64,000 nucleotides of DNA from Eubacteriales bacterium (lineage in GTDB: Bacteria > Bacillota > Clostridia > Oscillospirales > CAG-272), in the NCBI GenBank assembly GCA_045124505.1, contig JBGVLZ010000090.1, positions 24,507 through 88,506 of the forward strand, read 5' to 3'. This document shows, piece by piece, positions 5,299-53,004 of the stretch. How positions within the stretch are numbered: the stretch's first letter is position 1; each line of letters begins with the position of its first letter. The notes under the pieces were generated by a model. The model did not search any database, had not been told where the DNA came from, and was given only the letters and a program-made list of their open reading frames with translations. Both the position numbers and the translations under genes were made by a program.

Positions 5299-5991
5299 AT
5301 GTACTGTATAAAATGCGGTGTTAAACTTGCAGATACTGAAAAGAAATGTCCTCTATGCAATACCGTTGTTTATCATCCTGAGCTTTCACAAACAACAGCA
5401 CAACCGCTTTATCCAAGTAATAAGATGCCGAAAAATGAGTCAGGATCAAAGATCCTGCACGGTGCGGTTATTATTTTGTTTTTGATTCCTTTGTTTATCT
5501 GCTTGTTTGCCGATCTGTCGCTTGACGGTAAAATTGAGTGGTTTGGATATGTTGCCGGTGCACTTGTAATTGCATATGTCGCCTTTGCATTACCGTTGTG
5601 GTTTAAAAAGCCGAATCCTGTTATATTTGTTCCGTGTGATTTTGCCGTGACAGCATTGTATTTACTGTATATCAATTCAGAAACAGGCGGTAAATGGTTT
5701 TTAAGCTTTGCGTTACCTGTAGTCGGCGGTATAGGTATTATTACCTGTACTGTAGTTACGCTTATGTACTATTTGAAAAAAGGCAAATTATATATATTGG
5801 GCGGTGCGTTCATGGCTTTGGGCGCATTTATGCTGCTTGTTGAATTTTTGCTTGATATAACATTTGGTTTGCAGTTTATAGGCTGGTCGGTATACCCGCT
5901 TGTTGTTATGTTCATGTTTGGCGGCTTACTGATCTATATTGCTATAAACAGTTCAGTCCGTGAAATGATAGAAAGAAAACTGTTTTTTTGA
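5299..5991 (+). CDS. zinc-ribbon membrane protein
   Basis: The N-terminus MYCIKCGVKLADTEKKCPLCNT (CxxC...CxxC) is followed by about 5 hydrophobic spans. GAGAGG RBS. The start is 2 nt after the upstream stop. Confidence 0.7.
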   Translation: MYCIKCGVKLADTEKKCPLCNTVVYHPELSQTTAQPLYPSNKMPKNESGSKILHGAVIILFLIPLFICLFADLSLDGKIEWFGYVAGALVIAYVAFALPLWFKKPNPVIFVPCDFAVTALYLLYINSETGGKWFLSFALPVVGGIGIITCTVVTLMYYLKKGKLYILGGAFMALGAFMLLVEFLLDITFGLQFIGWSVYPLVVMFMFGGLLIYIAINSSVREMIERKLFF

Positions 5992-17766: not shown

Positions 17767-18000
17767 CAAAAAAACGCTTCCGTCTCCTTGTTGAACCAAA
17801 GAGACGAAAACGAAAATAATCACAGTTTCCGCGGTACCACTCTTCTTCATCCCGCACGGGATGCACTTTAGATGCTATCACATCTTAACTCTGTCACGGG
17901 AGTTTCCCGTCTGCCACTACTTGATATTTTCATGCCAGCCGCTCCGCGGTGAGTTCAGCAAAATTTTCTCAGTGTCTTGCACCGCCCGACACCTCTCTGT
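17767..18000 (-). promoter_or_regulatory. T-box riboswitch, specifier CUC (Leu)
   Basis: Read on the minus strand: AGAGAG...GGTGCAAG stem I, then the specifier-loop context GAA-CTC-A (plus 17950-17956). The T-box sequence is AGAGTGGTACCGCGG (plus 17829-17840). The terminator is CGTCTC..GAGACG plus a U-run (17767-17806). Confidence 0.85.
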
Positions 18001-18050
18001 ATGAAAAAAGCTTTGCGTACTATTCCGCATCCTTGCGTTTATTGCAAGCT

Positions 18051-18153: not shown

Positions 18154-18618
18154 TTACAATACTAATTCCATTCCTATTTTTTGGGGCACGAGTCCCAGTG
18201 CCTGATAAAATTTTAAAGCGGACTGATTACAGCTCCATACATTCAGCGTCAGATTATAACAATCATTTTCACGTGCAAGTCTTACTGCCGCTTCATAAAG
18301 CTCTTTGCCTATGTGCTTTCCCCGTAATTTTTCATCAACGCAAAGATCGTCAATATACAATGTTTTAATTTCGGTAAGTATGGAATTTTCTATGTGATGC
18401 TGAAAAATACAGAAGCAGTAACCCATAACCTCGTCATTTTCATCTGTATATACAAGAATGGGACGGTTCTCATCTTTAAGCAATTCTTCAAGTTCTTCTT
18501 CTGAATATTTTGTGCCTGCTTTGAAAATGTCCGGTCTGCCGTTGTGATGCACAAGACATACCTGTAACAACAGCTCTTTTATTTTCGGTATATCCTTTTT
18601 TTCTGCCATTCGTATCAT
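18154..18618 (-). CDS. GNAT-family acetyltransferase
   Basis: LCVDEKLRGKHIGKELY acetyl-CoA block. Start is at MIRMAEKK behind GGGAG, 14 nt after the DAHP synthase stop. Confidence 0.8.
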   Translation of the reverse strand: MIRMAEKKDIPKIKELLLQVCLVHHNGRPDIFKAGTKYSEEELEELLKDENRPILVYTDENDEVMGYCFCIFQHHIENSILTEIKTLYIDDLCVDEKLRGKHIGKELYEAAVRLARENDCYNLTLNVWSCNQSALKFYQALGLVPQKIGMELVL

Positions 18619-18631
18619 TTGTTTTCTCCCG

Positions 18632-19660
18632 TCAAAGCTTATCTGCAATATCAAGCACAAGGCGTTCCGTCTTTTCCCAGCCAAGGCAGGGATCGGTTAT
18701 TGATTTTCCGAAAATATGCTCCCCTGTGCTTTGCGCTCCGTCCTCTATGTAGCTTTCGATCATCAGCCCTTTTACAAGACGTCTGATGGTGGGATTTTGA
18801 TTTCGGCTGTGAACGATATCCTTTGCAATACGTATCTGCTCAATATATTGCTTTCCCGAATTGTTGTGGTTTGTATCTACAATGACCGAGGGATTTGCCA
18901 GATTTGACTTTTCATATAATTCTTCCACACGCAGAAGGTCTTCGTAGTGGTAATTTGAAGTGCTTCTTCCGGCATAGTCCACATACCCTCTCAGAATAGC
19001 GTGGGTATAGGGATTTCCGTCACTTGTGACCTCCCAGCCCTGATAAATAAATGTATGGCTTGACTGTGCGGCAACGATGGCATTCATCATAACACCGAGG
19101 TCACCGCCTGTCGGATTTTTCATTCCTACAGGTGCACCGACACCGCTTGCAGTCAGTCTGTGCTGTTGGTTTTCAACGGAACGTGCACCGACTGCGACGT
19201 ATGACAGCAGATCTGAAAGATAACGGTAATTTTCAGGATAAAGCATTTCATCAGCACAAGAAAAGTTATGATCTCTTAACGCTGCCAAATGAAGCTCACG
19301 TATGGCAACCAATCCCTTGTACATGTCGGGCTTTGCTTCCGGATCAGGCTGGTGAAGCATTCCTTTATAGCCTGCTCCCGTTGTTCTCGGTTTGTTTGTA
19401 TATATTCTCGGGATCATAACTATTTTATCCGCTACTTGCTCCTGAAGCCTGCGAAGCCTTGAAATATATTCAAGCACAGGCTCACTGTGGTCGGCAGAGC
19501 AGGGACCGATGATGAGAATAAATTTATCACAGCTTCCGTCAAATACAGCACGGATCATCTCGTCACGTTCTGATTTCACACGCTTCATTTTTTCTGTCAG
19601 GGGATATTCCTGTTTTACTTCTTCAGAAGAAGGCAGTCTTCTGTGAAATTGCATTTGCAT
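18632..19660 (-). CDS. 3-deoxy-7-phosphoheptulonate (DAHP) synthase, class I
   Basis: IIGPCS, RIYTNKPRTTGAGYKGM (KPRT block) and GMKNPTGG motifs. 342 aa. Confidence 0.9.
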   Translation of the reverse strand: MQMQFHRRLPSSEEVKQEYPLTEKMKRVKSERDEMIRAVFDGSCDKFILIIGPCSADHSEPVLEYISRLRRLQEQVADKIVMIPRIYTNKPRTTGAGYKGMLHQPDPEAKPDMYKGLVAIRELHLAALRDHNFSCADEMLYPENYRYLSDLLSYVAVGARSVENQQHRLTASGVGAPVGMKNPTGGDLGVMMNAIVAAQSSHTFIYQGWEVTSDGNPYTHAILRGYVDYAGRSTSNYHYEDLLRVEELYEKSNLANPSVIVDTNHNNSGKQYIEQIRIAKDIVHSRNQNPTIRRLVKGLMIESYIEDGAQSTGEHIFGKSITDPCLGWEKTERLVLDIADKL

Positions 19661-19773
19661 TGTATATTACCTCATAGTTTGCAACTGTTTGATACAACAA
19701 TAAAAATAATAAACAAACGTGTTTTATTACTTTTGTTGCAGTACCAAGTGTCAATAATAGATGGTAAGAGATA

Positions 19774-19900
19774 GCTCGTTTAAGGAAATAACTCACAAAG
19801 TGAGTCACCCCATGTGTTTTTTTGAATATTTATATATTTTGAGGCGGACGACCAATGGTCGTCCCCTATAATGTGACCTGTATTTTCCTTAAATGAGCCG
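19774..19900. repeat. intergenic repeat element (palindromic core GGACGACCAATGGTCGTCC plus TATTTCCTTAAAYGAGC boxes); second copy at ~45022-45100
   Basis: The ~80-nt stretch 19824-19900 matches the reverse complement of 45022-45100 at most positions (ATATTTATAYATTTTGARGCGGACGACCAATGGTCGYCCCTA..TTAAATGAGCC). An inverted box copy lies at 19774-19793. Confidence 0.65.
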
Positions 19901-19925
19901 GCTCTTACACTGAAATTTTAACGTA

Positions 19926-20357
19926 TTATAATTTATCCACATCGGCTTCGGTTATGATCTTGAAGCCTGCATCGCAAAGCGCTTTTTCAGCCGCATCGTT
20001 ATTTTCAACACGGATAACAACGTAAGCGTGCTTTTCTGTGCGTGCCATAAATGCATAAAGATATTCAATGTTGATCTTGTTTTCATCAAGCACTTTCAGA
20101 GCTGATGAAAGCTTACCCGGTGCATCGCCGATCTTTACACCGACAACGTCGGTGATCTTTATAAGATATCCTTCGTCTTTCAAGATTTTTTCTGCTGTTT
20201 CTTCATCGTTGACGATAAGGCGCAGTATGCCGAAATCCTGTGTTTCAGCAATAGAAAGTGCACGGATGTTTATATTATGAGCAGAAAGTGTTTCGGTGAT
20301 GGAAACGACTGCGCCCTGTTTGTTTTCAACAAATACCGTTAATTGTCTGATAGCCAT
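19926..20357 (-). CDS. ACT-domain protein (two ACT-like halves)
   Basis: 143 aa. The pattern LTVFVENKQGAVVSITETLSAHNINIRALS is repeated as GVKIGDAPGKLSSALKVLDENKINIEYLY. It lies immediately downstream of the PaaK-like ligase. Confidence 0.85.
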   Translation of the reverse strand: MAIRQLTVFVENKQGAVVSITETLSAHNINIRALSIAETQDFGILRLIVNDEETAEKILKDEGYLIKITDVVGVKIGDAPGKLSSALKVLDENKINIEYLYAFMARTEKHAYVVIRVENNDAAEKALCDAGFKIITEADVDKL

Positions 20358-20374
20358 AATTTTATCCCCCTATA

Positions 20375-21682
20375 TTATACAAGCTTTCTCTTGTCGATTA
20401 CACGGACGGCTTTGCCTTCGCTTCTTGCGATGCTCTTGGGTGCGACAAGATGAACGGCAGGATTTATGCCGAGCATTGTCTTCATTGCACCTGCAAGAGA
20501 TTTTTCCATGCTGAGAATTTCACTTACCTTGTCGGTGAACTTTTCGGGTGTCATTTCTACATTCACCTCAAATGTATCCGTGTTCTTTACACGGTCAACG
20601 ATGATCTGATAGTTTGGTTCATATCCTTCGTTAAGAAGTACTGTTTCTATCTGGCTGGGGAATACGTTTACACCCCTGATTATGAGCATATCGTCTGTTC
20701 TTCCCATCGGCTTTGCCATTTTGACGAGAGTTCTTCCGCAGGAGCATTTTTTGCGTGAAAGAACACAGATATCACGTGTGCGGTAACGCAAAAGCGGGAA
20801 TGCTTCCTTGTCAAGGGAAGTGAACACAAGCTCACCCTTCGAGCCTTCGGGAAGGACCTCACCTGTTTCAGGATCGATTATCTCGGCATAGAAGTGGTCC
20901 TCATTGATGTGCATACCTGCCTGCTCCTCACATTCAAATGCAACCCCGGGGCCGCTTGTTTCTGTAAGACCGTATATGTCATATGCCTTGATTCCAAGCG
21001 TTTTTTCAATACCCTGACGCATTTCCTCCGTCCACGGCTCAGCACCGAAAATGCCTGCTTTAAGCGGAATGTCTTCGGGCTTGTATCCCTGTTCCTTCAG
21101 AGTTTCACCGATATATGCCGCATAAGATGGGGTACAGCAGATGATCGAAGCGTTCAGATCCATCATGAACTGTATCTGACGGTCGGTGTTTCCTGACGAC
21201 ATGGGAAGCGTAAGACAGCCTACTTTGTGAGAACCGCCGTTAAGTCCGGGACCGCCTGTGAAAAGACCGTAGCCGTATGCGACCTGACAAACGTCTTTTT
21301 TCGTTCCGCCTGCGGCAGTTATTGCACGTGCACAGCAGTCTTCCCAAAGATCAATGTCGTGCTGTGTATAGAACGCCACAACACGCCTGCCTGTTGTGCC
21401 CGATGTTGACTGAATACGCACACAGTCCTCAAGCGGCTTTGCCAAAAGTCCGTAAGGATATGCATCTCTTAAATCTGCTTTTGTTAAAAACGGGAGCTTG
21501 TGAAGATCGTCAATTCCTTTGATATCTTCGGGCTTTACGCCCTTTTCATCCATAAGCTTTTTGTAGTAAGGGACGTTATCGTAAACGTGCTTTACCTGCT
21601 TGACGAGCTTTTCCGACTGAAGCTTTTTCATATCTTCGATCGGCATTGTTTCGATTTCCTTCTGATAGTAGTTTTGTGCCAT
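20375..21682 (-). CDS. phenylacetate--CoA ligase family (PaaK / F390-synthetase-like) adenylate-forming enzyme
   Basis: STSGTTGRRV P-loop, YGLTE, and ~435 aa architecture typical of PaaK. Start is at MAQNYYQKE behind AAGGATGG. Confidence 0.85.
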   Translation of the reverse strand: MAQNYYQKEIETMPIEDMKKLQSEKLVKQVKHVYDNVPYYKKLMDEKGVKPEDIKGIDDLHKLPFLTKADLRDAYPYGLLAKPLEDCVRIQSTSGTTGRRVVAFYTQHDIDLWEDCCARAITAAGGTKKDVCQVAYGYGLFTGGPGLNGGSHKVGCLTLPMSSGNTDRQIQFMMDLNASIICCTPSYAAYIGETLKEQGYKPEDIPLKAGIFGAEPWTEEMRQGIEKTLGIKAYDIYGLTETSGPGVAFECEEQAGMHINEDHFYAEIIDPETGEVLPEGSKGELVFTSLDKEAFPLLRYRTRDICVLSRKKCSCGRTLVKMAKPMGRTDDMLIIRGVNVFPSQIETVLLNEGYEPNYQIIVDRVKNTDTFEVNVEMTPEKFTDKVSEILSMEKSLAGAMKTMLGINPAVHLVAPKSIARSEGKAVRVIDKRKLV

Positions 21683-21752
21683 TTTGGACCATCCTTTCTT
21701 TTGCTCACTTTTGAGCTGTGTTTTGATAAGTTCGGAAGAGGATATGGCAAAC

Positions 21753-21995
21753 AAAAACGCCCTCCGCATTCCGATAAGAATACAGAGGACGAGAAAATCA
21801 ATAATCCCGTGGTACCACCTCAGTTCGCCGATACCTCACGGCAACGACCTTTTCAGGTACTGACATACCTTAGTTCTGTGACGGGAACTCCCGTTGCATC
21901 CTACTAAAGATTTCTCTTATTCAGCGCACTGCTAACAGAATGAATTCGAGAAGGACATCCGCTTTGCCTCGCACCACCCGGCAACTCTCTCCAGC
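21753..21995 (-). promoter_or_regulatory. T-box riboswitch, specifier UUC (Phe)
   Basis: Read on the minus strand: K-turn/AGTA region, then AGAGAG..GGTGCGAG, then the specifier context GAA-TTC-A followed by lower stem TTCTG (plus 21941-21947). The T-box sequence is GAGGTGGTACCACGG (plus 21803-21822). A terminator hairpin plus U-run lies at 21753-21791. Confidence 0.85.
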
Positions 21996-22060
21996 TTCTT
22001 TCCAACCTACTGGTTTCTGATCTTCGCATTTAGTGTTACAACTTATTCAATTGTGTCGTC

Positions 22061-22089
22061 ATTGTAGCACTTTAATTCGCAAAAGTCAA
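22061..22089 (-). promoter_or_regulatory. sigmaA-like promoter of the Phe T-box operon
   Basis: TTGACT - 17 nt - TACAAT on the minus strand. Confidence 0.6.
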
Positions 22090-22184
22090 GAGGTTTAAAG
22101 AATTTTTTTAATTTTTTTATTTCACGGCAAAATGACCGCTTCTGATTTCCGAAACGGTCATGTTTGCTCATTTAATATAGGCTT

Positions 22185-23393
22185 TTATTCAGATGCTTTG
22201 AAATTATATACAGGCTTCAATTTGCAGATGATGTCCGCTGTCGGCGCAATATTTCCAATTATTTCAGCAATACTTTTGTATGCCATGGGTGACTCATCAA
22301 GTGTGTCGGGAACAACACAGGTTGAATATATACCTGCCATTTCAGTTTCGTATTCAGCCATTGTAAGACGCTCAAACGCGGCAGAGCGTGACATAAGACG
22401 TCCTGCTCCGTGAGGCGCTGAAAAGTTCCAATCCTCATTTCCTTTACCTATACAGATGAGTGAGCCGTCACGCATATTAATGGGAATAAGGAGCTTTTCG
22501 CCCGCTTTGGCAGACACCGCACCTTTGCGGAGAATCATCTCATTTACATCGATATAGTTGTGTATGGTCTGAAATGTTTCAATGGGTGTGAAATTGCAAT
22601 ATTCAATGATCTTCTCCGCTATTTTTGCACGGTTTCTTTCAGCAAATTTCTGACAAATATCCACGTCGTGAAGATAATCATCCATAAACGAACCGTAGAG
22701 AAAGCAAAGATCACGGGGAAGTGTGGGCTCTTTTGCATGAAATTCATTTTCAAGCGCTTTCAGCGCACCCTGTATTTCGCACCGTCTGCCCTGTTCTTTG
22801 TATGTTCGTATAATTTCATCACGCTGTTTGAAATATTCCTCTTTTCCCGAATTAAGGTCAATGGCAATATCTTGATAAAATTCTGCTACCTGTGTGCCGA
22901 GGTTACGGCTTCCCGAATGTATCACGAGATATTTTCCGCCGTTTTCATCCTCGTCGATTTCAATGAAGTGATTTCCGCCTCCGAGCGTTCCAATCGATCT
23001 TTCAAGACGCTTTGTGTCCTTGAGATTTCTGTAACAGCAAAGAGTTGTAAGGTCAAATCTTTCCTGTCTGCCTTCCCATACGTTTCGCCCCGAGGGAATT
23101 GAATGTGATATCGTATCGACCTTTTCAAAATCGATATCGATGTTTCCGAGGTACACTGTATACATTCCGCATCCGATGTCAACACCGACCATTGAAGGAA
23201 CGATCTTATCCGTTACGGTCATCGTTGTGCCGATCGTACAGCCCTTGCCTGCGTGAACGTCGGGCATTATTCTTATTTTAGAGGATGCAAATGCTTCTGT
23301 ATCGCATACAGCCTTTATTTGCTCAAATGCGCCGTCCTCAACAGTTGTTGCAAAGCACTTGGCTGTGTTGAAATTTCCTTTTATCTCTAACAT
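22185..23393 (-). CDS. rtcB: RNA-splicing/repair ligase RtcB (3'-phosphate/5'-OH ligase)
   Basis: RtcB motifs MPDVHAGKGCTIG, GGGNHFIE, HSGSRNLG, APHGAGR. 402 aa. Confidence 0.92.
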   Translation of the reverse strand: MLEIKGNFNTAKCFATTVEDGAFEQIKAVCDTEAFASSKIRIMPDVHAGKGCTIGTTMTVTDKIVPSMVGVDIGCGMYTVYLGNIDIDFEKVDTISHSIPSGRNVWEGRQERFDLTTLCCYRNLKDTKRLERSIGTLGGGNHFIEIDEDENGGKYLVIHSGSRNLGTQVAEFYQDIAIDLNSGKEEYFKQRDEIIRTYKEQGRRCEIQGALKALENEFHAKEPTLPRDLCFLYGSFMDDYLHDVDICQKFAERNRAKIAEKIIEYCNFTPIETFQTIHNYIDVNEMILRKGAVSAKAGEKLLIPINMRDGSLICIGKGNEDWNFSAPHGAGRLMSRSAAFERLTMAEYETEMAGIYSTCVVPDTLDESPMAYKSIAEIIGNIAPTADIICKLKPVYNFKASE

Positions 23394-38607: not shown

Positions 38608-39660
38608 ATGAAAAAGGGAAAATTTAATATTTTGCTTGTTCTGACGGGTGGGACGATATGCTCATTTGCCGATTCGAAAGGTGAGAGAGCATCAAAAACC
38701 AAAGAAGCGCAAGCGCTGATAGTGGAAAATTTCAGAAACAGTAATTCTGTTTATAAAAGCGAGGATCGCGCGACATTTACACCGAGCTTTTTGCTTGATA
38801 TTTTGAGCGAAAATATGACACTTACGCATTGGAACACTTTGATTAGTGGGCTCAAAAAACAAGATTTTTCTTTATATGACGGTGTGATAATACTTCACGG
38901 AACTGATACGCTTGCGTATACAGCATCGCTTTTGTCGCTTTTGCTTGCAGGAATAAAAATACCTGTGTTTCTTGTTTCGAGTCAGTTGCCTATATACGAG
39001 AAAGAAGCGAATGGAAACGATAATTTTAAAACCGCTGTTGAACTTATAATAAACGGAATAAAACCGAATGTTTATGCTGTATATAAAAACAGCGACGGCA
39101 AAATGTATGTACACTACGGCTGCCATTTACTGCAGTGTGCCAATCATTCAAATGATTTTTACAGCTGTGATATGACTGAAATTGATGAAAATACGGCTGT
39201 ATTTGAAGGTGAAAAAACAAAAGCCGAAACGATGCTCCTTGAAAAAATCGATTCACTTTCATCACGTGTTATAAAAATTGAGCCGTATGTGGGAATTGAT
39301 TACAGCACATTCAACCTTGACGGTGTAAAAGCAGTTTTGCATGGCACATATCATTCAAGCACCCTTTCCGTCAATCCGTATAAAGAGGAACGTGAGTCAC
39401 CGGATTCTGTTATGTATCTCAAAAAACTGTGCGATGATGTAACACCTGAAATACCGATATTTATACACCCTTGCGATGAAAATGCTTATTCATACGAAAC
39501 AACAGGCATCGCCTTGCGTTCAGGCATCATACCGATAGATGGTATGACTGCAGAAACAGCATACACAAAGCTCCTCATTGGCACATCTTTTGGATATCAA
39601 GGCTGCGAGCTTATAAACTTTATAAATACAGATATAAACAGGGAAATTGTTTATAATTAG
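38608..39660 (+). CDS. asparaginase/glutaminase-family amidohydrolase (type I-like)
   Basis: LTGGTICS (TGGT nucleophile box) and ILHGTDTLAYTAS (HGTDT box). Confidence 0.85.
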   Translation: MKKGKFNILLVLTGGTICSFADSKGERASKTKEAQALIVENFRNSNSVYKSEDRATFTPSFLLDILSENMTLTHWNTLISGLKKQDFSLYDGVIILHGTDTLAYTASLLSLLLAGIKIPVFLVSSQLPIYEKEANGNDNFKTAVELIINGIKPNVYAVYKNSDGKMYVHYGCHLLQCANHSNDFYSCDMTEIDENTAVFEGEKTKAETMLLEKIDSLSSRVIKIEPYVGIDYSTFNLDGVKAVLHGTYHSSTLSVNPYKEERESPDSVMYLKKLCDDVTPEIPIFIHPCDENAYSYETTGIALRSGIIPIDGMTAETAYTKLLIGTSFGYQGCELINFINTDINREIVYN

Positions 39661-39979: not shown

Positions 39980-40235
39980 TAGATTAATAGGTTATGATGA
40001 AGGCAGTACGGTAGGATCAATGTTTACAGAGAGCCGCATAATGGTGCAAGTGCGGTAACAAATTTTACCTGAAGAACACTTCGGAGCCTGCGGAAGAACG
40101 CCTTTTGGTTATTAGAACCGCACGTTGATCGCGAAAAGATTTAATGAAGAGGGCCGTTTTACGGTCAATTTGGGTGGTATCGCGGAAGAGGAGCCTTTCG
40201 TCCCATATTATGGGGCGGAAGGCATTTTGTTTTTC
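39980..40235 (+). promoter_or_regulatory. T-box riboswitch, probable specifier AAC (Asn)
   Basis: AGAGAG (40028-40033)...GGTGCAAG. The specifier context is CTGAAG-AAC-A-CTTCGG (AAC at 40075-40077). The T-box sequence is AATTTGGGTGGTATCGCGG (~40168-40186). The terminator GCCTTTCGTCCC/GGGGCGGAAGGC is followed by a T-run. Confidence 0.85.
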
Positions 40236-40291
40236 TTCCGTATAAAATGATTAAAAAAGAAAATATTTTACTAAAAGGAGTACAATATATT

Positions 40292-42067
40292 ATGCTTAGA
40301 ACACACACTTGTAATGAACTCGGTATAAATAATATCGGGGAAAAAGTAACCCTTACAGGCTGGATGGATACTGTGCGTGACCACGGAGGCGTGCTCTTTG
40401 TTGACCTTCGTGACCATTACGGAGTAACACAGATCGTTCTTTCCGATGATTCGCTTATCGCAGGCATCGCAAAGGAAACAGTTATTCTTGTTGAGGGTGT
40501 TGTTTCCAAGAGAGATGAAGAAACAGTAAACCCCAAGATCGCAACAGGTCTTATCGAAGTGAAGGCTGAAAAGGTTGAGGTGCTTGGTCCCTGCCAGCTC
40601 GGACTTCCTTTCGAAATCGATACATCAACACAGACAAGAGAAGAGGTAAGACTTAAGTACAGATATCTTGACCTTCGTAACCGCAAGATACACGATAACA
40701 TCGTGCTTCGTTCAAAGATACTCAGCTATCTCCGTTCCCAGATGGAAGATCTCGGATTTTTGGAAATACAGACACCTATTCTTACAGCTTCATCCCCTGA
40801 AGGCGCAAGAGACTATCTTGTTCCCAGCCGTAAGCACAAGGGCAAGTTCTACGCTCTGCCTCAGGCTCCTCAGCAGTTCAAGCAGCTTCTTATGGCATCG
40901 GGCTTTGACCGTTACTTCCAGATAGCACCTTGCTTCCGTGATGAGGATGCACGTCAGGACAGATCACCCGGTGAATTCTACCAGCTCGACTTTGAAATGT
41001 CCTTTGCAACACAGGAGGACGTATTTGCAGTTGCTGAAACTGTTGTATATAACACATTTACAAAGTTCTCTGACAAGAAGGTATCAAAGCCTCCGTTTAG
41101 AAGGATCACATTTGCTGATGCAATGCTGAAGTACGGTACGGATAAGCCCGACCTTCGCAACCCCCTGGAAATAAAGGATCTTACAGACTTCTTTGCAAGA
41201 CATGAATTCCTTGATATCAACGGCAGAACAGTTCCGTTCAAGAATAAGCTTGTACGCGGTATCGTTGCAAACTACCTTGTGAAGAAGGACGGTGAGGGCG
41301 ACGGTAAAAAGGCGTTTGAAAAGGCTATCGACACATATTCAAGAAGCATCGGAATGAAGTTCGGATGCGGATATATAACACTTGAAGGCGATGATTTCAA
41401 AGGTCCTATTGCAAAATTCCTTACAGACGAACAGAAAAAAGAGCTTTGCGAGATATGCGGCGTAAAAGAAGGCGACTCCATCTTCTTCATCAGCGACAGC
41501 GCTTCTGTTATCGACCGTCTTTCCGGCGAAATGAGAACATGGATCGGTAACGAGCTTGGACTTATCAAGGACGATTCCTTTGAATTCTGCTTCATTGTTG
41601 ACTTCCCGATGTATGAACTCAACGCTGAAACAGGCAGAATTGACTTCACACACAACCCCTTCTCAATGCCCCAGGGCGGTATGGATGCACTTCTTAATAA
41701 AGATCCGCTTGAAATATTTGCTTATCAGTACGATATCGTATGTAACGGTGTTGAGCTTTCTTCAGGTGCTGTACGTAACCACAACCCCGAAATAATGAGA
41801 AAAGCGTTTGAAATTGCAGGTTACGGTGAGGAAGACCTCAAGGCTAAGTTCGGCGCGCTTTACACGGCGTTTGCATACGGTGCTCCCCCTCATGCAGGTA
41901 TGGCGCCCGGCGTTGACAGAATGATAATGCTTATTGCAGGCGAAGAAACAATAAGAGATGTTATCGCATTCCCGCTTAACGGAAATGCACAGGATCTCAT
42001 GATGGGCGCACCGGGCGAGGTTACGGAGCAGCAGCTTCGTGAGGTTCACATAAAAGTTAGAGATTGA
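40292..42067 (+). CDS. aspS: aspartate--tRNA ligase (probably non-discriminating)
   Basis: Class IIb motifs (FYQLDFEMSF, GVELSSGAVRNH, GAPPHAGMAPGVDR). Start is at MLRTHTCNELG. It lies in an operon with gatCAB. Confidence 0.93.
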   Translation: MLRTHTCNELGINNIGEKVTLTGWMDTVRDHGGVLFVDLRDHYGVTQIVLSDDSLIAGIAKETVILVEGVVSKRDEETVNPKIATGLIEVKAEKVEVLGPCQLGLPFEIDTSTQTREEVRLKYRYLDLRNRKIHDNIVLRSKILSYLRSQMEDLGFLEIQTPILTASSPEGARDYLVPSRKHKGKFYALPQAPQQFKQLLMASGFDRYFQIAPCFRDEDARQDRSPGEFYQLDFEMSFATQEDVFAVAETVVYNTFTKFSDKKVSKPPFRRITFADAMLKYGTDKPDLRNPLEIKDLTDFFARHEFLDINGRTVPFKNKLVRGIVANYLVKKDGEGDGKKAFEKAIDTYSRSIGMKFGCGYITLEGDDFKGPIAKFLTDEQKKELCEICGVKEGDSIFFISDSASVIDRLSGEMRTWIGNELGLIKDDSFEFCFIVDFPMYELNAETGRIDFTHNPFSMPQGGMDALLNKDPLEIFAYQYDIVCNGVELSSGAVRNHNPEIMRKAFEIAGYGEEDLKAKFGALYTAFAYGAPPHAGMAPGVDRMIMLIAGEETIRDVIAFPLNGNAQDLMMGAPGEVTEQQLREVHIKVRD

Positions 42068-42084
42068 TTTTAAGGAGTGGAAAT

Positions 42085-42366
42085 ATGGATAGAAACACAC
42101 TCAGAAGACTTGAGCTTCTCAATCAGCTCAGTTTGACAGAAACGCAGAAAGATGAAGTTATATCGTTTTTTCAGGACAGAGAAAAAGACGCTGAAGTTCT
42201 TGAAAATATAGACACCGCCAACGTGGAACGTATGGTACACGTAATGCCTATTATGACGGTAGTGCGTGAGGATATCCCCTCACAGCCGTTTTCACGTGAC
42301 GACCTTCAAAAGGGTGCACCCGAAACCGACGAGGGATATTGGTGCGTTCCCCGTGTTGTAGAATAA
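42085..42366 (+). CDS. gatC: Asp/Glu-tRNA amidotransferase subunit C
   Basis: 93-aa protein between aspS and gatA. AAGGAG RBS. The typical GatC tail is present (...APETDEGYWCVPRVVE). Confidence 0.85.
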   Translation: MDRNTLRRLELLNQLSLTETQKDEVISFFQDREKDAEVLENIDTANVERMVHVMPIMTVVREDIPSQPFSRDDLQKGAPETDEGYWCVPRVVE

Positions 42367-42379
42367 GGAGGGTATTCAG

Positions 42380-43546
42380 ATGATATATACAGCGAAAAAA
42401 GATGTTAATTCCGCTTGCAAAATAGTGGCGGAGGATATGCTCCTTACAACTGATATGCCTACAGCAGCAGGCTCAAAGATGCTTGACGGTTATATGAGCC
42501 TTCTTGAAGCAGAAGTGCTGACAAGACTTAAAAATAAAGGTTATGGTGTATGCGGAAAAGCTGACGTAGGTGAATTTGCCATTGACCTTTTAGGTGAGAC
42601 TTCATATAACGGTGCAAATACAGCGGACGGAAAAATTGTAAATTCATCTGCTGAAATACTGAAGAAAAATGAAGCCGATGCGGTCATCGCACTTGATGTT
42701 AACGGTGCAGTACGCCGTGCCGCAGCGCAGAACGGTCTTGTAAGTGTCAAGCCCACATACGGAACTGTTTCACGTTACGGAACAATTCCCGTTGCTTGCT
42801 CAGGCGAAACAGTGAGCGTTATGGCAAAGAATGCCGATATGTGCCGCAAAATTCTTGATGATATTGCAGGACACGATAACAAGGACGGCACAAGCCTTCC
42901 CGAATGTGAAATAGCTAAAAAGGCTGATGTGAAGTCTATAAAACGCATAGCAATTATAAATGATATGATGGCTGATGTTTCCGATGACATCAAAGCAAAC
43001 ATTGATGATGCTTGTGCAAAGCTCGGAGTTGAAACGGTGAAGATCGACAGTTCTGTAATTGCCGCATCACGTGCTGCCTGGAACATTCTTATGAGTGCGG
43101 AGCTTTGCAACAATGTTTCAAGATATGACGGTGTAAAGTACGGACACAGAGCCGAGAAGTTCTTAGGAATTGATGAGCTTTATACAAACAGCCGTACAGA
43201 GGCTTTCGGCGAACTGCTTAAAACTGCAATAATTTTCGGTTCGGAAACACTTTCGACAGAAAATTATATGAAGGTATATGATAAAGCACTTCGTACACGC
43301 CGTGTAATTGCAGAGGAATTTGCAAAGATATTTGCAGAATTTGACGCTGTGATGATCCCCGCTTGTTCAAAGGCTTTCTATACGGAAGATGATGTAAAGG
43401 CGGATAAATACATTTCTTACAAAGAAAACTTCTATACAGCACCCGCATCGATCACGGGACTTCCTGCGGTCGTCGCACACGGTGTACAGCTTATAGGCAA
43501 GGCTTTTTCCGAAAATGCATTGCTTGAGCTTGTATCAAAGCTTTAA
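42380..43546 (+). CDS. gatA: GatA-like amidase-signature protein, N-terminally short and lacking the Lys/Ser(nucleophile) catalytic residues
   Basis: Collinear with GatA (TAAGSKML, VKPTYGTVSRYG, SRYDGVKYG, FGSETLS, ASITGLPAV). It is only 388 aa. IKDN is AEDM, GGSSGGS is VNSSAEI and DTGGSIRQPAA is DVNGAVRRAAA. Confidence 0.8.
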   Translation: MIYTAKKDVNSACKIVAEDMLLTTDMPTAAGSKMLDGYMSLLEAEVLTRLKNKGYGVCGKADVGEFAIDLLGETSYNGANTADGKIVNSSAEILKKNEADAVIALDVNGAVRRAAAQNGLVSVKPTYGTVSRYGTIPVACSGETVSVMAKNADMCRKILDDIAGHDNKDGTSLPECEIAKKADVKSIKRIAIINDMMADVSDDIKANIDDACAKLGVETVKIDSSVIAASRAAWNILMSAELCNNVSRYDGVKYGHRAEKFLGIDELYTNSRTEAFGELLKTAIIFGSETLSTENYMKVYDKALRTRRVIAEEFAKIFAEFDAVMIPACSKAFYTEDDVKADKYISYKENFYTAPASITGLPAVVAHGVQLIGKAFSENALLELVSKL

Positions 43547-43563
43547 AGGGAGGTATAACGGCT

Positions 43564-45006
43564 ATGAAATACGAAACAGTCATAGGACTTGAAGTACATG
43601 TTGAGCTTGCAACACAGTCCAAAATTTTCTGCTCATGTTCGGCACATTCATACGGTGCAGAGCCTAATGAGCATGTATGCCCCGCTTGCTGCGGTATGCC
43701 GGGTATGCTTCCCGTTGTAAACAAAAGAGTTGTTGATTACGGTATGAAGGCAGGGCTTATGCTCGGATGCGATATTAACCGTGTAACGACATTTGACAAA
43801 AAAAGCTATTACTATCCCGACCTTCCCGCCGCTTATCAGACAACGCAGTGGTTTGCGCCGGTTGCCATAAACGGTCTTGTTGAAATTGAAACTTCAAAGG
43901 GCAAAAAGGGAATACGCATAAAGCAGATCCATATGGAGGAAGATGCAGGTAAGCTTGTACACGATATAAGAGAAGACACAACACATGTTGACTTCAACCG
44001 TACAAGTGTTCCGCTTATTGAAATAGTAAGCCAGCCTGACCTTTCCTGTGCGGAAGAGGTTGAAGCTTATCTTGAAAGACTGAAAAATCTGCTCCGTTAT
44101 GCAAGAGTTGCAGAGTGCGAAATGGCACACGGAACGATGAGATGTGACGTTAACCTTTCCGTCCGTCCGGAAGGAAGCGATAAGCTCGGTGTGCGTACCG
44201 AAATGAAAAATATGAACTCAATTGAAGCTATCAAGAGAGCTATTGAGTATGAAACGGCAAGACACATAGATGCGCTTGAAAACAACACAGAGGTGCTTGT
44301 TCAGGAAACAAGACGCTGGGATGATATCAAGGGCAAGAGCTTTGCTATGAGAACAAAGGAAACAGCAGGCGACTACCGTTATTTCCCCGACCCCAACGTA
44401 ATGCCCGTTGTTATCGATGATGCGTGGTTTGATGAAATCAAGTCATCGCTTCCCGAATTCCCTGAAGTAAAGCGTGCACGCTATACAGAAGAATACGGAC
44501 TCGGCGAATACGATACAGAACAGATCACAAAGAGTATTGCGCTTTGTGAATGCTTTGAAGAAGCCGCAAAGGTGTGCGGCGACGCCAAGAATGCCGCAAA
44601 CTGGATAATTTCCGAGGTTATGAGCATTCTCAACCTTCGCCAGATGACGTATGATATGCTTACTGTAAGCGGAAAGTCACTCGGTGAGCTTATTGTGCTT
44701 GTAGCGGGCGGAAAAGTCGGACGTGCAAATGCAAAGAAGATACTTGCCGCTATGTTTGACGATGCAAGCATCAACCCTGAAGAGTATGCAAACGCAAACG
44801 GATTTATCATATCAAATGATACAGGACTTATCGATAAGGTCGTAAAGACGGTTGTTGAGTCTGATCCCAAGTCCGTTGCAGACTATAAGTGCGGTAAGGA
44901 AAAAGCACTTATGGCACTGTTCGGCAGATGCATGAAAGAGCTTAAAGGAAACTGTGATCCGCAGGTCCTCAGAAAAATACTGATCGACTATATCGATAAA
45001 ATATAA
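43564..45006 (+). CDS. gatB: Asp/Glu-tRNA amidotransferase subunit B
   Basis: YETVIGLEVHVEL, CPACCGMPG and HMEEDAGK motifs plus a C-terminal YqeY-like tail. 480 aa. Confidence 0.93.
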   Translation: MKYETVIGLEVHVELATQSKIFCSCSAHSYGAEPNEHVCPACCGMPGMLPVVNKRVVDYGMKAGLMLGCDINRVTTFDKKSYYYPDLPAAYQTTQWFAPVAINGLVEIETSKGKKGIRIKQIHMEEDAGKLVHDIREDTTHVDFNRTSVPLIEIVSQPDLSCAEEVEAYLERLKNLLRYARVAECEMAHGTMRCDVNLSVRPEGSDKLGVRTEMKNMNSIEAIKRAIEYETARHIDALENNTEVLVQETRRWDDIKGKSFAMRTKETAGDYRYFPDPNVMPVVIDDAWFDEIKSSLPEFPEVKRARYTEEYGLGEYDTEQITKSIALCECFEEAAKVCGDAKNAANWIISEVMSILNLRQMTYDMLTVSGKSLGELIVLVAGGKVGRANAKKILAAMFDDASINPEEYANANGFIISNDTGLIDKVVKTVVESDPKSVADYKCGKEKALMALFGRCMKELKGNCDPQVLRKILIDYIDKI

Positions 45007-48289: not shown

Positions 48290-48551
48290 ATGTAAACACT
48301 GTGAAGAAAACGGCAGAAAAAGGTTTTCGCAGAGAGTCGGCGGCAGGTGTAAGCCGATAAAACTGATTTCGGTAAGCCACATCATTTCTGAGTGGGAGAG
48401 GTGAAGACAGTAGCTTCTCACGTTAAGCCGCGTTAAGGCAAAGGGCTTTGTGATGAGTCCGAAGTGGCATTTTTATGCAAATTGAGTGGTACCGCGGATC
48501 ATTCCGTCTCAAGGTTGTTAAAGGACTTTGAGACGTTTTTTGTTTTCACGC
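48290..48551 (+). promoter_or_regulatory. T-box riboswitch, tentative specifier AUC (Ile)
   Basis: AGAGAG..GGTGTAAG. The lower stem CAGAAA/TTTCTG is the same geometry as the Phe leader, with AC-ATC-A immediately 5' of TTTCTG (ATC at 48381-48383). The T-box sequence is AAATTGAGTGGTACCGCGG (48479-48497). The terminator is CGTCTCAA..TTGAGACG plus a T-run (48505-48551). Confidence 0.8.
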
Positions 48552-48604: not shown

Positions 48605-50893
48605 ATGGAAAAAACAGATTTGAAAACACAGCTCTCAGAGGTTGCACAGCGAATTAGAACACTTCGCGAGATCATGGGCATTTCTGCTGAGGACATGGCG
48701 GTTAAAACAGGAGTTTCAATAGAAAACTATCTTAAATACGAATCAGGTGAGCAGGACTTCAGCTTTACCTTTATTTATAAATGCGCAAAGCATCTCCGTG
48801 TTGACCCAACGGATCTTATAAAAGGTGAAAGTCCGACTCTTTCAAATTACACACTTACAAGAAGCGGTGAGGGACTTCCCATCACACGCCGTGAGGGTTT
48901 TAAATATCTGAATATGGCACCGCTTTTCAAACAGAAGACGGCAGAGCCGTTCTTTGTTGAAATGCCGTACTGTGCGGAAGACGCCGAAAAGCCTATCAAA
49001 ACGTCTACACATGAAGGACAGGAGCTGGATATTGTTATATCAGGCAAAATGAAAGTTCAGATAGGCAACCATACGGAAATACTCGGCGAAGGGGACTCAA
49101 TATACTACAATTCTTCAGCACCTCATGGCATGGTATCTCTTGATCCCGAAGGCACAAAATTCTATGCAATAGTACTCAAAAGTACCGAAGAAAAAGCAGA
49201 AAAGGATAAGTTTGAGCAGATCGTTTCACAGCGCAAAGCAAGACGTGATGCGCACAGAACAAGCGTTGCGGCGAACTTCATTGATACTGTATGCGACGAA
49301 AACGGTGTTTTGCAGTCTATATCCTTTAAAAATGAAGATAAATACAATTTTGCTTTTGATACTGTCGATGCAATTGCCGATAAATCCCCCGACAAGCTTG
49401 CGATGCTTCACATTTCAAACGATAAAACGGAAAGAAGATTTACGTTTGCTGACATGAAAAAGTATTCTGCAATGACAGCAAATTACTTCGAATCGCTCGG
49501 AATAAAGAAGGGCGACCGCGTAATGCTCGTTTTGAAGCGTCATTATCAGTTCTGGTTCTCAATTCTTGCGCTTCATAAGATAGGTGCTATTGCAATTCCC
49601 GCAACAAACCAGCTTATGCAGCACGATTTTGAATATAGATATAAAGCAGCGAATGTAAATGCTATTGTTTGTACATCTGACGGTGATGTTGCAAATCAGG
49701 CTGAAATAGCATCAAAAACAACGTCCCCTGACCTTATCAAGATCATTGTAGGCGAGAAAAAAGAAGGCTGGCTTGATTTCAACGAAGGCTTTGCAAAAAT
49801 GTCTGACGTTTACGAAAGAACTGCAGATTCTGCCTGCGGCTTTGATCCGATGCTTATGTACTTCACATCAGGTACAACAGGATATCCGAAGATAGCAACT
49901 CACGACTACAGATATGCAATCGGTCACTATATCACAGCAAGATATTGGCACAATGTCAATCCCGAAGGGCTTCACTTTACCATTTCAGACACGGGCTGGG
50001 GAAAAGCTGTCTGGGGCAAGCTGTACGGTCAGTGGCTGTGTGAAGCGGCAGTATTCACATATGATTTCGACAGATTTGATGCAAATGAAATACTTCCGAT
50101 GTTCGCTAAGTACAATATAACAACATTCTGTGCTCCCCCCACGATGTACCGCTTCTTTATAAAAGAGGATCTTTCAAAATTCGATCTTTCAAGTATTGAA
50201 TATTCTACAACTGCAGGCGAAGCACTTAACGCGGAAGTATTTGAACAGTGGCATAAGGCAACAGGTCTTACAATAATGGAAGGCTTCGGACAGACGGAAA
50301 CAACGCTCAGTGTTTGCAATCTTGTCGGTACAATGCCGAAACCGGGTGCTATGGGAAGACCGAGCCCTCTATACGACGTTGATATTGTAGATGAAAACGG
50401 AAAATCGCTTCCAGACGGTGAAACGGGTGAGATCGTTATCCATACAGATAAGCACATACCTTGCGGACTTTTCAAGGGCTATTATCTGAATGAAGAAAAG
50501 ACAAACGAGGTATGGCATGACGGACTTTACCACACGGGCGACACCGCTTGGCGCGATGAAGACGGATATTTCTGGTATGTCGGAAGAACGGATGACGTTA
50601 TCAAGTCATCTGGTTACCGTATAGGTCCGTTTGAAATTGAAAGCGTTATTATGGAGCTTCCTTACGTTCTTGAATGTGCCGTAACCGCAGTCCCCGACCC
50701 GATAAGAGGTCAGGCTATAAAAGCATCTATCGTGCTTGTAAAGGGCAAAGAGGGAACGGACGAACTCAAAAAAGAGATACAGACATATGTTAAGGAGCAT
50801 ACAGCACCCTATAAGTATCCCAGAGTTGTTCAGTTTATGGATTCACTTCCCAAGACTATAAGCGGAAAAATAAAGAGAAATGAGCTCAGATAA
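48605..50893 (+). CDS. fusion protein: XRE HTH + cupin + AMP-forming (medium/short-chain) acyl-CoA synthetase
   Basis: The N-terminal HTH_3 (IRTLREIMGISAEDMAVKTGVSIENYLKYESG) is followed by a cupin (HEGQELDIVISGKMKVQIGN...APHGM). Then comes the ACS core (FTSGTTGYPK, GFGQTET, YHTGD, GRTDDVIKSSGYRIGPFEIE, SGKIKR). Confidence 0.85.
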   Translation: MEKTDLKTQLSEVAQRIRTLREIMGISAEDMAVKTGVSIENYLKYESGEQDFSFTFIYKCAKHLRVDPTDLIKGESPTLSNYTLTRSGEGLPITRREGFKYLNMAPLFKQKTAEPFFVEMPYCAEDAEKPIKTSTHEGQELDIVISGKMKVQIGNHTEILGEGDSIYYNSSAPHGMVSLDPEGTKFYAIVLKSTEEKAEKDKFEQIVSQRKARRDAHRTSVAANFIDTVCDENGVLQSISFKNEDKYNFAFDTVDAIADKSPDKLAMLHISNDKTERRFTFADMKKYSAMTANYFESLGIKKGDRVMLVLKRHYQFWFSILALHKIGAIAIPATNQLMQHDFEYRYKAANVNAIVCTSDGDVANQAEIASKTTSPDLIKIIVGEKKEGWLDFNEGFAKMSDVYERTADSACGFDPMLMYFTSGTTGYPKIATHDYRYAIGHYITARYWHNVNPEGLHFTISDTGWGKAVWGKLYGQWLCEAAVFTYDFDRFDANEILPMFAKYNITTFCAPPTMYRFFIKEDLSKFDLSSIEYSTTAGEALNAEVFEQWHKATGLTIMEGFGQTETTLSVCNLVGTMPKPGAMGRPSPLYDVDIVDENGKSLPDGETGEIVIHTDKHIPCGLFKGYYLNEEKTNEVWHDGLYHTGDTAWRDEDGYFWYVGRTDDVIKSSGYRIGPFEIESVIMELPYVLECAVTAVPDPIRGQAIKASIVLVKGKEGTDELKKEIQTYVKEHTAPYKYPRVVQFMDSLPKTISGKIKRNELR

Positions 50894-52689: not shown

Positions 52690-52892
52690 TAAATTCGAAC
52701 CTTTGGGAATTCAGTGAAATCGTTCACTTTCACTCACGGCGAAATAATTCACTTGGTGAATTGTGAATTTGATGCTGCCGCATCAAGTGAAATTAAATCC
52801 ACCAACTCGCCGTCGAGGCGAATTTCACACGCCGCAGGCGTATTTCATATTGCAAAGCAATATTTCATCCACCCGTAAGGGTGGATTTAATT
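52690..52892. repeat. array of ~7 different short hairpins separated by (A)TTTCA(C/T)/GAAAT spacers
   Basis: Hairpins read directly: AGTGAA..TTCACT, AATTCAC-TTGG-GTGAATT, TGATGC..GCATCA, CGCC..GGCG, ACGCC-GCA-GGCGT, ATTGC-AAA-GCAAT, ATCCACCC-GTAA-GGGTGGAT. Confidence 0.55.
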
Positions 52893-52928
52893 GAAAATGA
52901 CAGATTCCTGTCGGAATCTGTCATTTTC
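52893..52928. terminator. 16-bp perfect hairpin directly 3' of tRNA-Thr (terminator for the minus-strand tRNA)
   Basis: GAAAATGACAGATTCC-TGTC-GGAATCTGTCATTTTC. Confidence 0.6.
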
Positions 52929-53004
52929 TGGAGCTGCTAGACAGAGTCGAACTGTCGACCTCATCCTTACCAAGGATGTGCTCTGCCAGCTGAGCCATAG
53001 CAGC
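52929..53004 (-). tRNA. tRNA-Thr: tRNA-Thr (anticodon GGU), CCA-encoded
   Basis: The minus strand GCTGCTATGGCTCAGCTGGCAGAGCACATCCTTGGTAAGGATGAGGTCGACAGTTCGACTCTGTCTAGCAGCTCCA folds as a cloverleaf. It has a 7-bp acceptor, a D-arm GCTC/GAGC with GG, anticodon loop TTGGTAA, and T-arm GACAG-TTCGACT-CTGTC. Confidence 0.9.

Follow-up and report, generated by a model that had tools for sequence, protein, structure and literature searches.

Leader, ligase and ACT genes

The locus considered here occupies positions 19926-22089, minus strand, of a 64,000-nucleotide (nt) stretch of contig JBGVLZ010000090.1, part of a metagenome-assembled genome (MAG) of an uncultured Eubacteriales bacterium from the ruminant gut; this whole stretch is called the window. 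The locus holds a promoter and a T-box leader followed by two genes, one for a ligase of the PaaK family (paaK) and one for an ACT-domain protein. Its features are listed below; aa stands for amino acids.

22061-22089, minus strand: sigma-70-type promoter TTGACT-17-TACAAT with a TG extended -10, 10 of 12 consensus matches, more promoter-like than any other site of this strand in the region
21782-22033, minus strand: full-length T-box leader (RF00230; Stem I, Stem II, Stem IIA/B, Stem III and antiterminator), defined by the covariance model
22015-22019, minus strand: 5′ strand of lower Stem I, CAGAA, pairing with UUCUG at 21936-21940
21969-21990, minus strand: AG bulge AGAGA (21986-21990) together with the distal loop GGGUGGUGCGA, the part of Stem I that serves as platform for the tRNA elbow, in near-invariant columns
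21941-21947, minus strand: 3′ side of the specifier loop, GAA (21947-21945), UUC (21944-21942) and A (21941), UUC being a codon for phenylalanine (Phe)
21785-21821, minus strand: antiterminator with the T-box sequence GGUGGUACCACG and a UGGU bulge (21814-21817) expected to pair with ACCA at the 3′ end of the tRNA
21748-21791, minus strand: intrinsic terminator, a 15-bp stem (21791-21758) and a U-run, mutually exclusive with the antiterminator
20375-21682, minus strand: PaaK-family aryl-acetate (phenylacetate)-CoA ligase of 435 aa, assigned from profile and structure-database matches and from homologue lengths
19926-20357, minus strand: ACT-domain pair protein of 143 aa, matching ACT_8 (PF19571) at 1e-25 over profile positions 1-138 of 141

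A promoter TTGACT-17-TACAAT had been claimed in an initial annotation of this DNA, and a consensus scan located it at 22089-22061(-). The T-box leader claimed there was checked against RF00230: a permissive scan of 21650-22200 returned a full-length match at 21782-22033(-), spanning model positions 1-219 with 92.2 bits and an E-value of 6.8e-21. Likewise, the specifier context GAA-TTC-A and the lower stem CAGAA/TTCTG are both present as had been described, and UUC is the specifier in a structural alignment with a covarying flanking helix; in the covariance-model alignment, the 3′ side of the specifier loop reads GAA-UUC-A and is followed by UCUG. The features that mark membership in Stem I were all found in the window leader, namely the S-turn AGUA/GAA, the A after the codon, the AGAGA bulge and the GGUGCGA distal loop. 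The terminator stem overlaps the 3′ strand of the antiterminator, so that one strand is shared between the two.

Judged from its sequence, the paaK leader is a genuine class I transcriptional T-box, ordinary for its kind. Class I T-boxes (RF00230), such as those of Bacillus subtilis tyrS and glyQS and the Phe T-boxes of pheS-pheT, have the same GAA-NNN-R specifier loop, AG bulge, distal loop, Stems II, IIA/B and III, UGGN bulge and terminator/antiterminator pair. They differ in their cargo, which here is an aryl-acid CoA ligase with an ACT protein instead of an aminoacyl-tRNA synthetase, a canonical biosynthetic gene or an amino-acid transporter. Folding Stem I by itself for minimum free energy gave no useful signal (z = +2.39), which is normal for a T-box Stem I so rich in motifs. 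Scanned with Rfam at gathering thresholds (93 bits for RF00230), the whole window yields three T-boxes (17797-18042-, 39985-40208+ and 48292-48514+), none of them in front of paaK.

The claim of a PaaK-family ligase is borne out by an AMP-binding domain (PF00501) with a short AMP-binding_C_2 domain (PF14535), and by full-length matches to PaaK structures. Over residues ~2-430, the closest matches in the PDB are 2Y27 (2.9e-125), 2Y4O (7.1e-124) and 4R1L (6.5e-121), all genuine PaaKs; other matches include the 2-hydroxyisobutyryl-CoA synthetase 6HDW and the AjiA1/PaaK-like ligases 6WUQ and 6SIW. Given that more than 100 homologues at no less than 90% identity measure 435 aa, the start of the ligase is placed at ATG 21682, which is preceded by the ribosome-binding site AAAGGA. 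The open frame (20375-21769) continues upstream through the terminator and makes a mechanical open reading frame of 464 aa; database gene calls of 459 and 464 aa (P0001, P0002) take in part of the T-box leader.

For comparison, a scan of species-representative genomes gave 80 loci with a PaaK 79-94% identical to that of the window, labelled L001 onward. All are from uncultured Acutalibacteraceae, Oscillospiraceae, Ruminococcus or other Clostridia MAGs; where a host is given in the record, it is mostly a ruminant or another herbivore. Counts of gene neighbourhoods refer to 82 related loci (83 places with the window included), counts of leaders to the 76 loci with enough upstream sequence, and the leader alignment to 34 sequences, that is 33 related leaders and the window's own.

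An ACT gene lies downstream of paaK in 79 of the 82 related loci, and the paaK-ACT pair is thus a unit. In the window the ACT protein had been placed 18 nt behind the ligase; its identity as an ACT_8 pair stands, while the interval from ligase stop to ACT start measures 17 nt. Its match to PDB 2F06 (7.5e-28) leads to an entry deposited only as 'conserved hypothetical protein', and weaker matches reach the small subunits of acetohydroxyacid synthase (AHAS). With the AHAS small subunit (IlvH/IlvN) and stand-alone ACT regulators it shares the ACT fold, weak sequence similarity and a gene tightly coupled to that of a catalytic partner, whereas by family it belongs, like 2F06, to ACT_8. By this analogy, the protein is probably an amino-acid-binding regulatory partner.

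Conservation of the leader and identity of the specifier

An alignable T-box core precedes paaK in 33 of the 76 scorable species, comprising nearly all of the closest relatives and scattered more distant ones. Ten orthologous leaders were scanned with the Rfam model; nine pass at 94-113.8 bits, and that of L065 falls under the gathering score. A hand-specified T-box structure was then imposed on the 34-leader alignment and compared with 500 shuffles and with versions in which the 3′ partners were slid by 1-3 columns. With the structure in place, 92% of the cells are paired and 32 of 54 pairs show compensatory changes, values that none of the 500 shuffles reach; with the partners slid, only 36-51% of the cells are paired. 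The lower Stem I that frames the specifier is paired in 99.4% of the cells and covaries at three of its five pairs, occurring as CAGAA/UUCUG, CGGAA/UUCCG, CAGGA/UCCUG and CAAGA/UCUUG. The UGGU bulge is invariant (34/34), and the antiterminator helices 11 and 12 are 98.5-100% paired. The terminator is likewise conserved and covarying, with columns 305-317 pairing to 339-351 in RNAalifold over the 34 leaders.

The complete RNAalifold structure missed lower Stem I and introduced a spurious long-range AGAG/UCUC pairing, and the hand-built structure was tested in its place. A pattern match in L043 was discarded, as it lies inside a coding sequence. A glycine riboswitch aptamer (57 bits) was seen at 3825-3916 of L010, ~2 kb upstream of the Phe-T-box-paaK unit of that locus.

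The specifier is UUC in the window and in 32 of the 33 related leaders; the leader of L013 is shifted in the alignment, yet contains GAAUUCA. The base 3′ of the specifier is A in 20 of the 34 aligned leaders and C in the other 14. This A/C variation bears on whether the specifier is read in another register, as AUU (Ile) or as UCA/UCC (Ser), in which case the switch would sense a different tRNA: Ser is encoded by UCA as well as by UCC, and AUU does not vary. We hold such a shift to be highly improbable. In the Leu, Asn, Ile and Tyr T-boxes that were examined, the codon likewise ends exactly one base before the 3′ strand of the lower stem, as it does in the covariance-model alignment, and a +1 register would put the post-codon base inside the covarying lower-stem helix. 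Moreover, the invariant UGGU implies a discriminator A73, which is compatible with tRNA-Phe and not with bacterial tRNA-Ser, where the discriminator is G73. Given the codon position in other T-boxes, the covarying helix and the UGGU/A73 match, both the +1 and the -1 registers are unlikely; the aromatic gene context, too, agrees with the Phe reading.

Acid activation and probable amino-acid salvage

In 38 of the 82 related loci, iorA and iorB, encoding an arylpyruvate:ferredoxin oxidoreductase (IOR), lie immediately upstream of paaK-ACT. IorA has 574 aa with POR_N and TPP_enzyme_C domains, and IorB 190 aa with a POR domain. The iorAB-paaK-ACT series is often preceded by a 546-aa AMP-binding ligase, with an SSF transporter beside that ligase in L033 and within the operon in L070. 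A T-box without adjacent iorAB was found in 25 loci, adjacent iorAB without a T-box in 30, both in 8 and neither in 19. Where both occur, the Phe T-box stands between iorB and paaK (e.g. L031, 5671-5912), and hence gates the ligase and ACT genes and not the IOR.

Tyr T-boxes, with the specifier GAA-UAC-(A/G), are also found in these clusters (L012, 3666-3913; L018, 3687-3932; L066, 1397-1629; L070, 42-300). In L012 and L018, the gene behind the Tyr T-box encodes an SSF transporter and lies just upstream of the Phe-T-box-paaK unit; in L066, the Tyr T-box leads SSF-iorAB-paaK. In L070, a Tyr (UAC-G) T-box leads a tightly packed operon of 546-aa ligase, SSF, iorA, iorB, paaK and ACT, the most direct sign that starvation for an aromatic amino acid switches on the IOR/ligase cluster, which is thus biosynthetic. 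In L012 and L018, the Tyr leader is in its 3′ half closely paralogous to the neighbouring Phe leader, and the T-box was therefore duplicated within the neighbourhood.

Two further T-boxes of the window stand before ligase genes. The Leu T-box at 17797-18042(-) (124.5 bits) has the specifier CUC, with the synonymous CUG in L010. Its cargo is a divergent LeuA-like protein (16333-17850-) that scores under all isopropylmalate synthase cut-offs, followed by an 819-aa protein in which a xylose-isomerase-like TIM barrel is fused to an acyl-CoA ligase (13872-16331-) and which may be an isovalerate-activating enzyme for Leu synthesis. This unit, with its Leu specifier (CUC or CUG), recurs near paaK-ACT in L004, L010 and L050. 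The Ile T-box at 48292-48514(+), with the specifier AUC here as in L014 and L017, stands before the gene of a 762-aa HTH-cupin-acyl-CoA-ligase fusion (48605-50893+), an arrangement shared by those two loci. The ligase domain of the fusion matches PDB 3ETC with an E-value of 2e-189; 3ETC is a Methanosarcina acetivorans synthetase preferring 2-methylbutyrate, the precursor acid of Ile, which rumen bacteria convert to isoleucine by carboxylation. It is unusual for a ligase under riboswitch control to be fused to a DNA-binding domain. The Ile unit is found near paaK-ACT in L007, L014 and L017.

The route from phenylacetate to Phe in rumen bacteria has been known physiologically since the 1960s, and the iorAB-paaK clusters of anaerobes and archaea serve an aryl-acid route to the aromatic amino acids, e.g. 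in Methanococcus maripaludis. The same enzyme pair, an AMP-forming aryl-acetate ligase and an arylpyruvate:ferredoxin oxidoreductase, is adjacent in the 38 loci above; in contrast, paaK-ACT of the window is detached from iorAB and carries a tRNA-Phe-sensing leader of its own, hinting at the direction of the pathway. AMP-forming ligases run from the acid to the CoA thioester, and a T-box turns its genes on only when the cell starves for its cognate amino acid. A switch predicted to turn on only with uncharged tRNA-Phe would mark this PaaK as a biosynthetic (salvage) enzyme. We consider it probable that a tRNA-Phe-specific class I T-box attenuator controls the paaK-ACT operon, whose most likely role is to salvage phenylacetate into Phe. 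An anabolic role had also been argued in the initial annotation; it is supported by the iorAB genes upstream in 38 loci, the Tyr operon of L070 and the Leu and Ile T-box ligases of the window, while the adjacency to a DAHP synthase gene on which it had also drawn falls away (see below).

In this mechanism, transcription would start at the promoter at 22089-22061, and the leader would fold either as the terminator (21791-21758) or as the antiterminator. Following the established T-box mechanism, the UUC specifier of Stem I would read the GAA anticodon of tRNA-Phe, and the acceptor end of the uncharged tRNA would stabilize the antiterminator through the UGGU bulge, with the ligase and ACT genes predicted to be transcribed under Phe limitation. 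From its context, the ligase would activate exogenous phenylacetate to phenylacetyl-CoA; IorAB, presumably encoded elsewhere in the genome, would reductively carboxylate phenylacetyl-CoA to phenylpyruvate, and transamination would give Phe. The IOR seems to be a shared enzyme, with the acid-activation step gated separately for each amino acid: by Phe for PaaK, by Tyr for the 546-aa ligase and the SSF transporter in relatives, and by Ile and Leu for the two ligases of the window.

Several observations weigh against this interpretation. The window leader lies 0.8 bit under the Rfam gathering score, and is hence missed by default Rfam annotation. The specifier of L004 reads UGC (Cys), and a C stands in place of the purine usual in class I T-boxes after the specifier in 14 of the 34 leaders. 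As many as 43 of the 76 scorable related species carry paaK-ACT without any T-box, so that T-box control is lineage-variable; in an Rfam scan of L001 and 24 other loci without a T-box core (11 full ligase-iorAB-paaK-ACT operons and 13 others), no riboswitch or T-box was found before paaK. The ligase matches TIGR02155 end to end with 531.3 bits, under the equivalog trusted cut-off of 646.3, and is accordingly filed as a member of the PaaK family and not as a proven equivalog. A protein search of the 64-kb window found neither iorAB nor any other 2-oxoacid:ferredoxin oxidoreductase, which makes the presence of iorAB in this genome a prediction. Lastly, the role given to the ACT protein is argued purely by analogy with AHAS small subunits.

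As for L004, it is the second-closest relative by PaaK identity (93%), and its leader (5652-5902) is otherwise intact, with 107 bits and UGGU kept. A mutation, an assembly error or re-targeting of the leader could account for its UGC.

The equivalog score and the lack of iorAB in the window would also suit a Phe-specific T-box whose ligase acts on another acid (3-phenylpropionate, 4-hydroxyphenylacetate or indoleacetate), or whose aryl-CoA product serves a purpose other than Phe, making the link to Phe indirect; PaaK-like ligases with other substrates do appear among the PDB matches (6HDW, 6WUQ, 6SIW). We judge this unlikely, given that by far the best matches are three genuine PaaKs over the full length (E ~1e-121 to 1e-125) and that orthologues no less than 79% identical are encoded within iorAB operons. 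Furthermore, the separate ligase and transporter under Tyr T-boxes suggest a division of labour in which PaaK serves Phe.

PaaK is classically a catabolic enzyme. The window ligase has the same fold and domain architecture as PaaK of the aerobic phenylacetate catabolon (Burkholderia PaaK1/PaaK2, 2Y27/2Y4O; paa operons of E. coli and Pseudomonas), with E ~1e-125. Were its role catabolic or one of detoxification, as in the aerobic and anaerobic breakdown of phenylacetate, the T-box would be a regulatory accident or a decaying relic, in line with a leader just under the gathering score and with the many relatives without one. This is very unlikely in our view. The leader is kept with compensatory changes in 33 other species, and a starvation-induced switch makes no sense for the catabolism of a Phe degradation product. 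Unlike the catabolon enzyme, the window ligase has no paaABCDE/paaGZJFH neighbours or PaaX/PaaR-type control, and its predicted induction is by amino-acid starvation and not by substrate; among the window proteins scanned, no genes of paa ring oxidation or of the benzoyl-CoA pathway were found.

Returning to phenylacetate salvage under Phe control, the specificities Phe, Tyr, Ile and Leu, each with an acid-activating ligase, make a coherent picture of four. More broadly, the T-boxes of herbivore-gut Clostridia may constitute a starvation-induced 'fermentation-acid salvage' regulon, in which uncharged tRNA turns on the CoA ligase (sometimes with a transporter) for the cognate acid, and the ligase feeds shared 2-oxoacid:ferredoxin oxidoreductases working in the direction of reductive carboxylation; we regard this proposal as evenly poised between right and wrong. 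Its pairs would be Phe with phenylacetate and PaaK, Tyr with 4-hydroxyphenylacetate and the 546-aa ligase plus SSF, Ile with 2-methylbutyrate and the 3ETC-like HTH-cupin-ligase, and Leu with isovalerate and the TIM-barrel-ligase fusion. Comparative T-box surveys of 2008 reportedly used the specifier to predict the function of regulated genes; the same logic, that the specifier names the amino acid which the cargo supplies, is applied here to acid-CoA ligases.

A full-text literature search of partial coverage returned no paper linking T-boxes with phenylacetate or phenylacetate-CoA ligase, and an earlier description, e.g. in regulon databases, is possible. The RNA and the ligase are ordinary members of their families, and the route and the clustering of iorAB with paaK are already known; what looks new is the pairing of T-box and ligase, and its extension to Tyr, Ile and Leu ligases.

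A Phe T-box on paaK provides regulatory evidence for the direction of a pathway that looks reversible. Together with the T-boxes for Tyr, Ile and Leu, it indicates particular genes for a long-known, genetically poorly defined conversion in the rumen, that of phenylacetate and branched-chain volatile fatty acids to amino acids, which is of relevance to ruminant nutrition (branched-chain acids being feed supplements) and to phenylacetate levels in the gut. If the regulon proposal is true, the specifier codon would be a ready-made substrate predictor for uncharacterised ligases, and the missing genes and regulation would be supplied for the rumen physiology described in the 1960s. The locus also illustrates two ways in which annotation can overlook a genuine T-box: a score threshold (here missed by 0.8 bit) and gene callers that extend an open reading frame into the leader.

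Downstream genes and other neighbours

Downstream of the ACT gene lie the following features.

19764-19908, no strand assigned: single-copy imperfect inverted repeat with 25-nt arms (19764-19788 and 19884-19908), between the ACT and DAHP synthase genes
18632-19660, minus strand: class I (AroF/G/H-type) DAHP synthase, a neighbour assigned from profile matches, its membership in the T-box operon only putative
18154-18684, minus strand: GNAT acetyltransferase, its true start probably downstream of TTG 18684

Both the class I DAHP synthase and the GNAT named in the initial annotation are supported by domain matches, the former by PF00793 DAHP_synth_1 (3e-45), TIGR00034 (251.6 against a cut-off of 173.2) and NF009395 (344.1 against 343). 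The adjacency of DAHP synthase had been taken as a sign of an aromatic supply locus. This does not hold up: DAHP synthase directly follows ACT in only two of the 83 places, the window and L080, the two ACT-DAHP synthase spacers are unrelated in sequence, and that of the window contains the inverted-repeat insertion.

The 'repeat element' reported earlier proved to be only this single-copy inverted repeat, its arms having no other copy in the window. It contains internal hairpins and has a very stable fold (z = -7.75). Rfam gave no match to it, and the window contains no further copy; it is also absent from the 82 loci (the L080 spacer included), and gave 0 matches in JGI metagenomes by exact arm pattern. 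It would thus appear to be a local, lineage-specific insertion and not a member of a repeat family. A long AT-rich hairpin at 19690-19745, immediately upstream of the ribosome-binding site of DAHP synthase, likewise matches nothing in Rfam, and neither the relatives nor the JGI metagenomes contain a copy of it.

These features bear on whether PaaK, ACT, DAHP synthase and GNAT make up a single 'aromatic supply' operon under Phe control, in which transcription reads through into the DAHP synthase gene. All four genes share a strand, the consensus scan found no canonical terminator in the ACT-DAHP synthase interval and no strong promoter match before DAHP synthase, and L080 has the same gene order; in L016, GNAT directly follows ACT. 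We nonetheless find a four-gene operon rather doubtful. The adjacency is limited to the two places mentioned, the 265-nt spacer is unlike that of L080, and the very stable inverted repeat and the second long hairpin could block or process transcripts.

The gene following ACT in L016 (7761-8228) encodes a homologue 76% identical to the window GNAT and lies 2 nt past the end of the ACT match, while in the window DAHP synthase stands between ACT and GNAT. The ligase operon may be linked to the GNAT.

Upstream of the T-box promoter, an RtcB RNA ligase, a Band-7/SPFH protein and one WCX- and one WYL-domain protein stand in a row (22185-27400-). They may be an RNA-repair module with WYL-type regulators, and appear unrelated to the ligase locus.

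Elsewhere in the window, the third T-box found at gathering thresholds (39985-40208+) is an Asn T-box (AAC). It stands before genes for an AspRS with a GAD domain and then an amidase (GatA-like) and GatB (40247-45006+), and an asparaginase-domain protein (38608-39660) is encoded just upstream of it; the unit fits tRNA-dependent Asn-tRNA synthesis under Asn control. Finally, on the minus strand, a tRNA-Thr(GGU) gene is followed directly by a Gut-1 RNA (RF01706, 86 bits), the two occupying 52817-52893(-) and 52929-53004(-).

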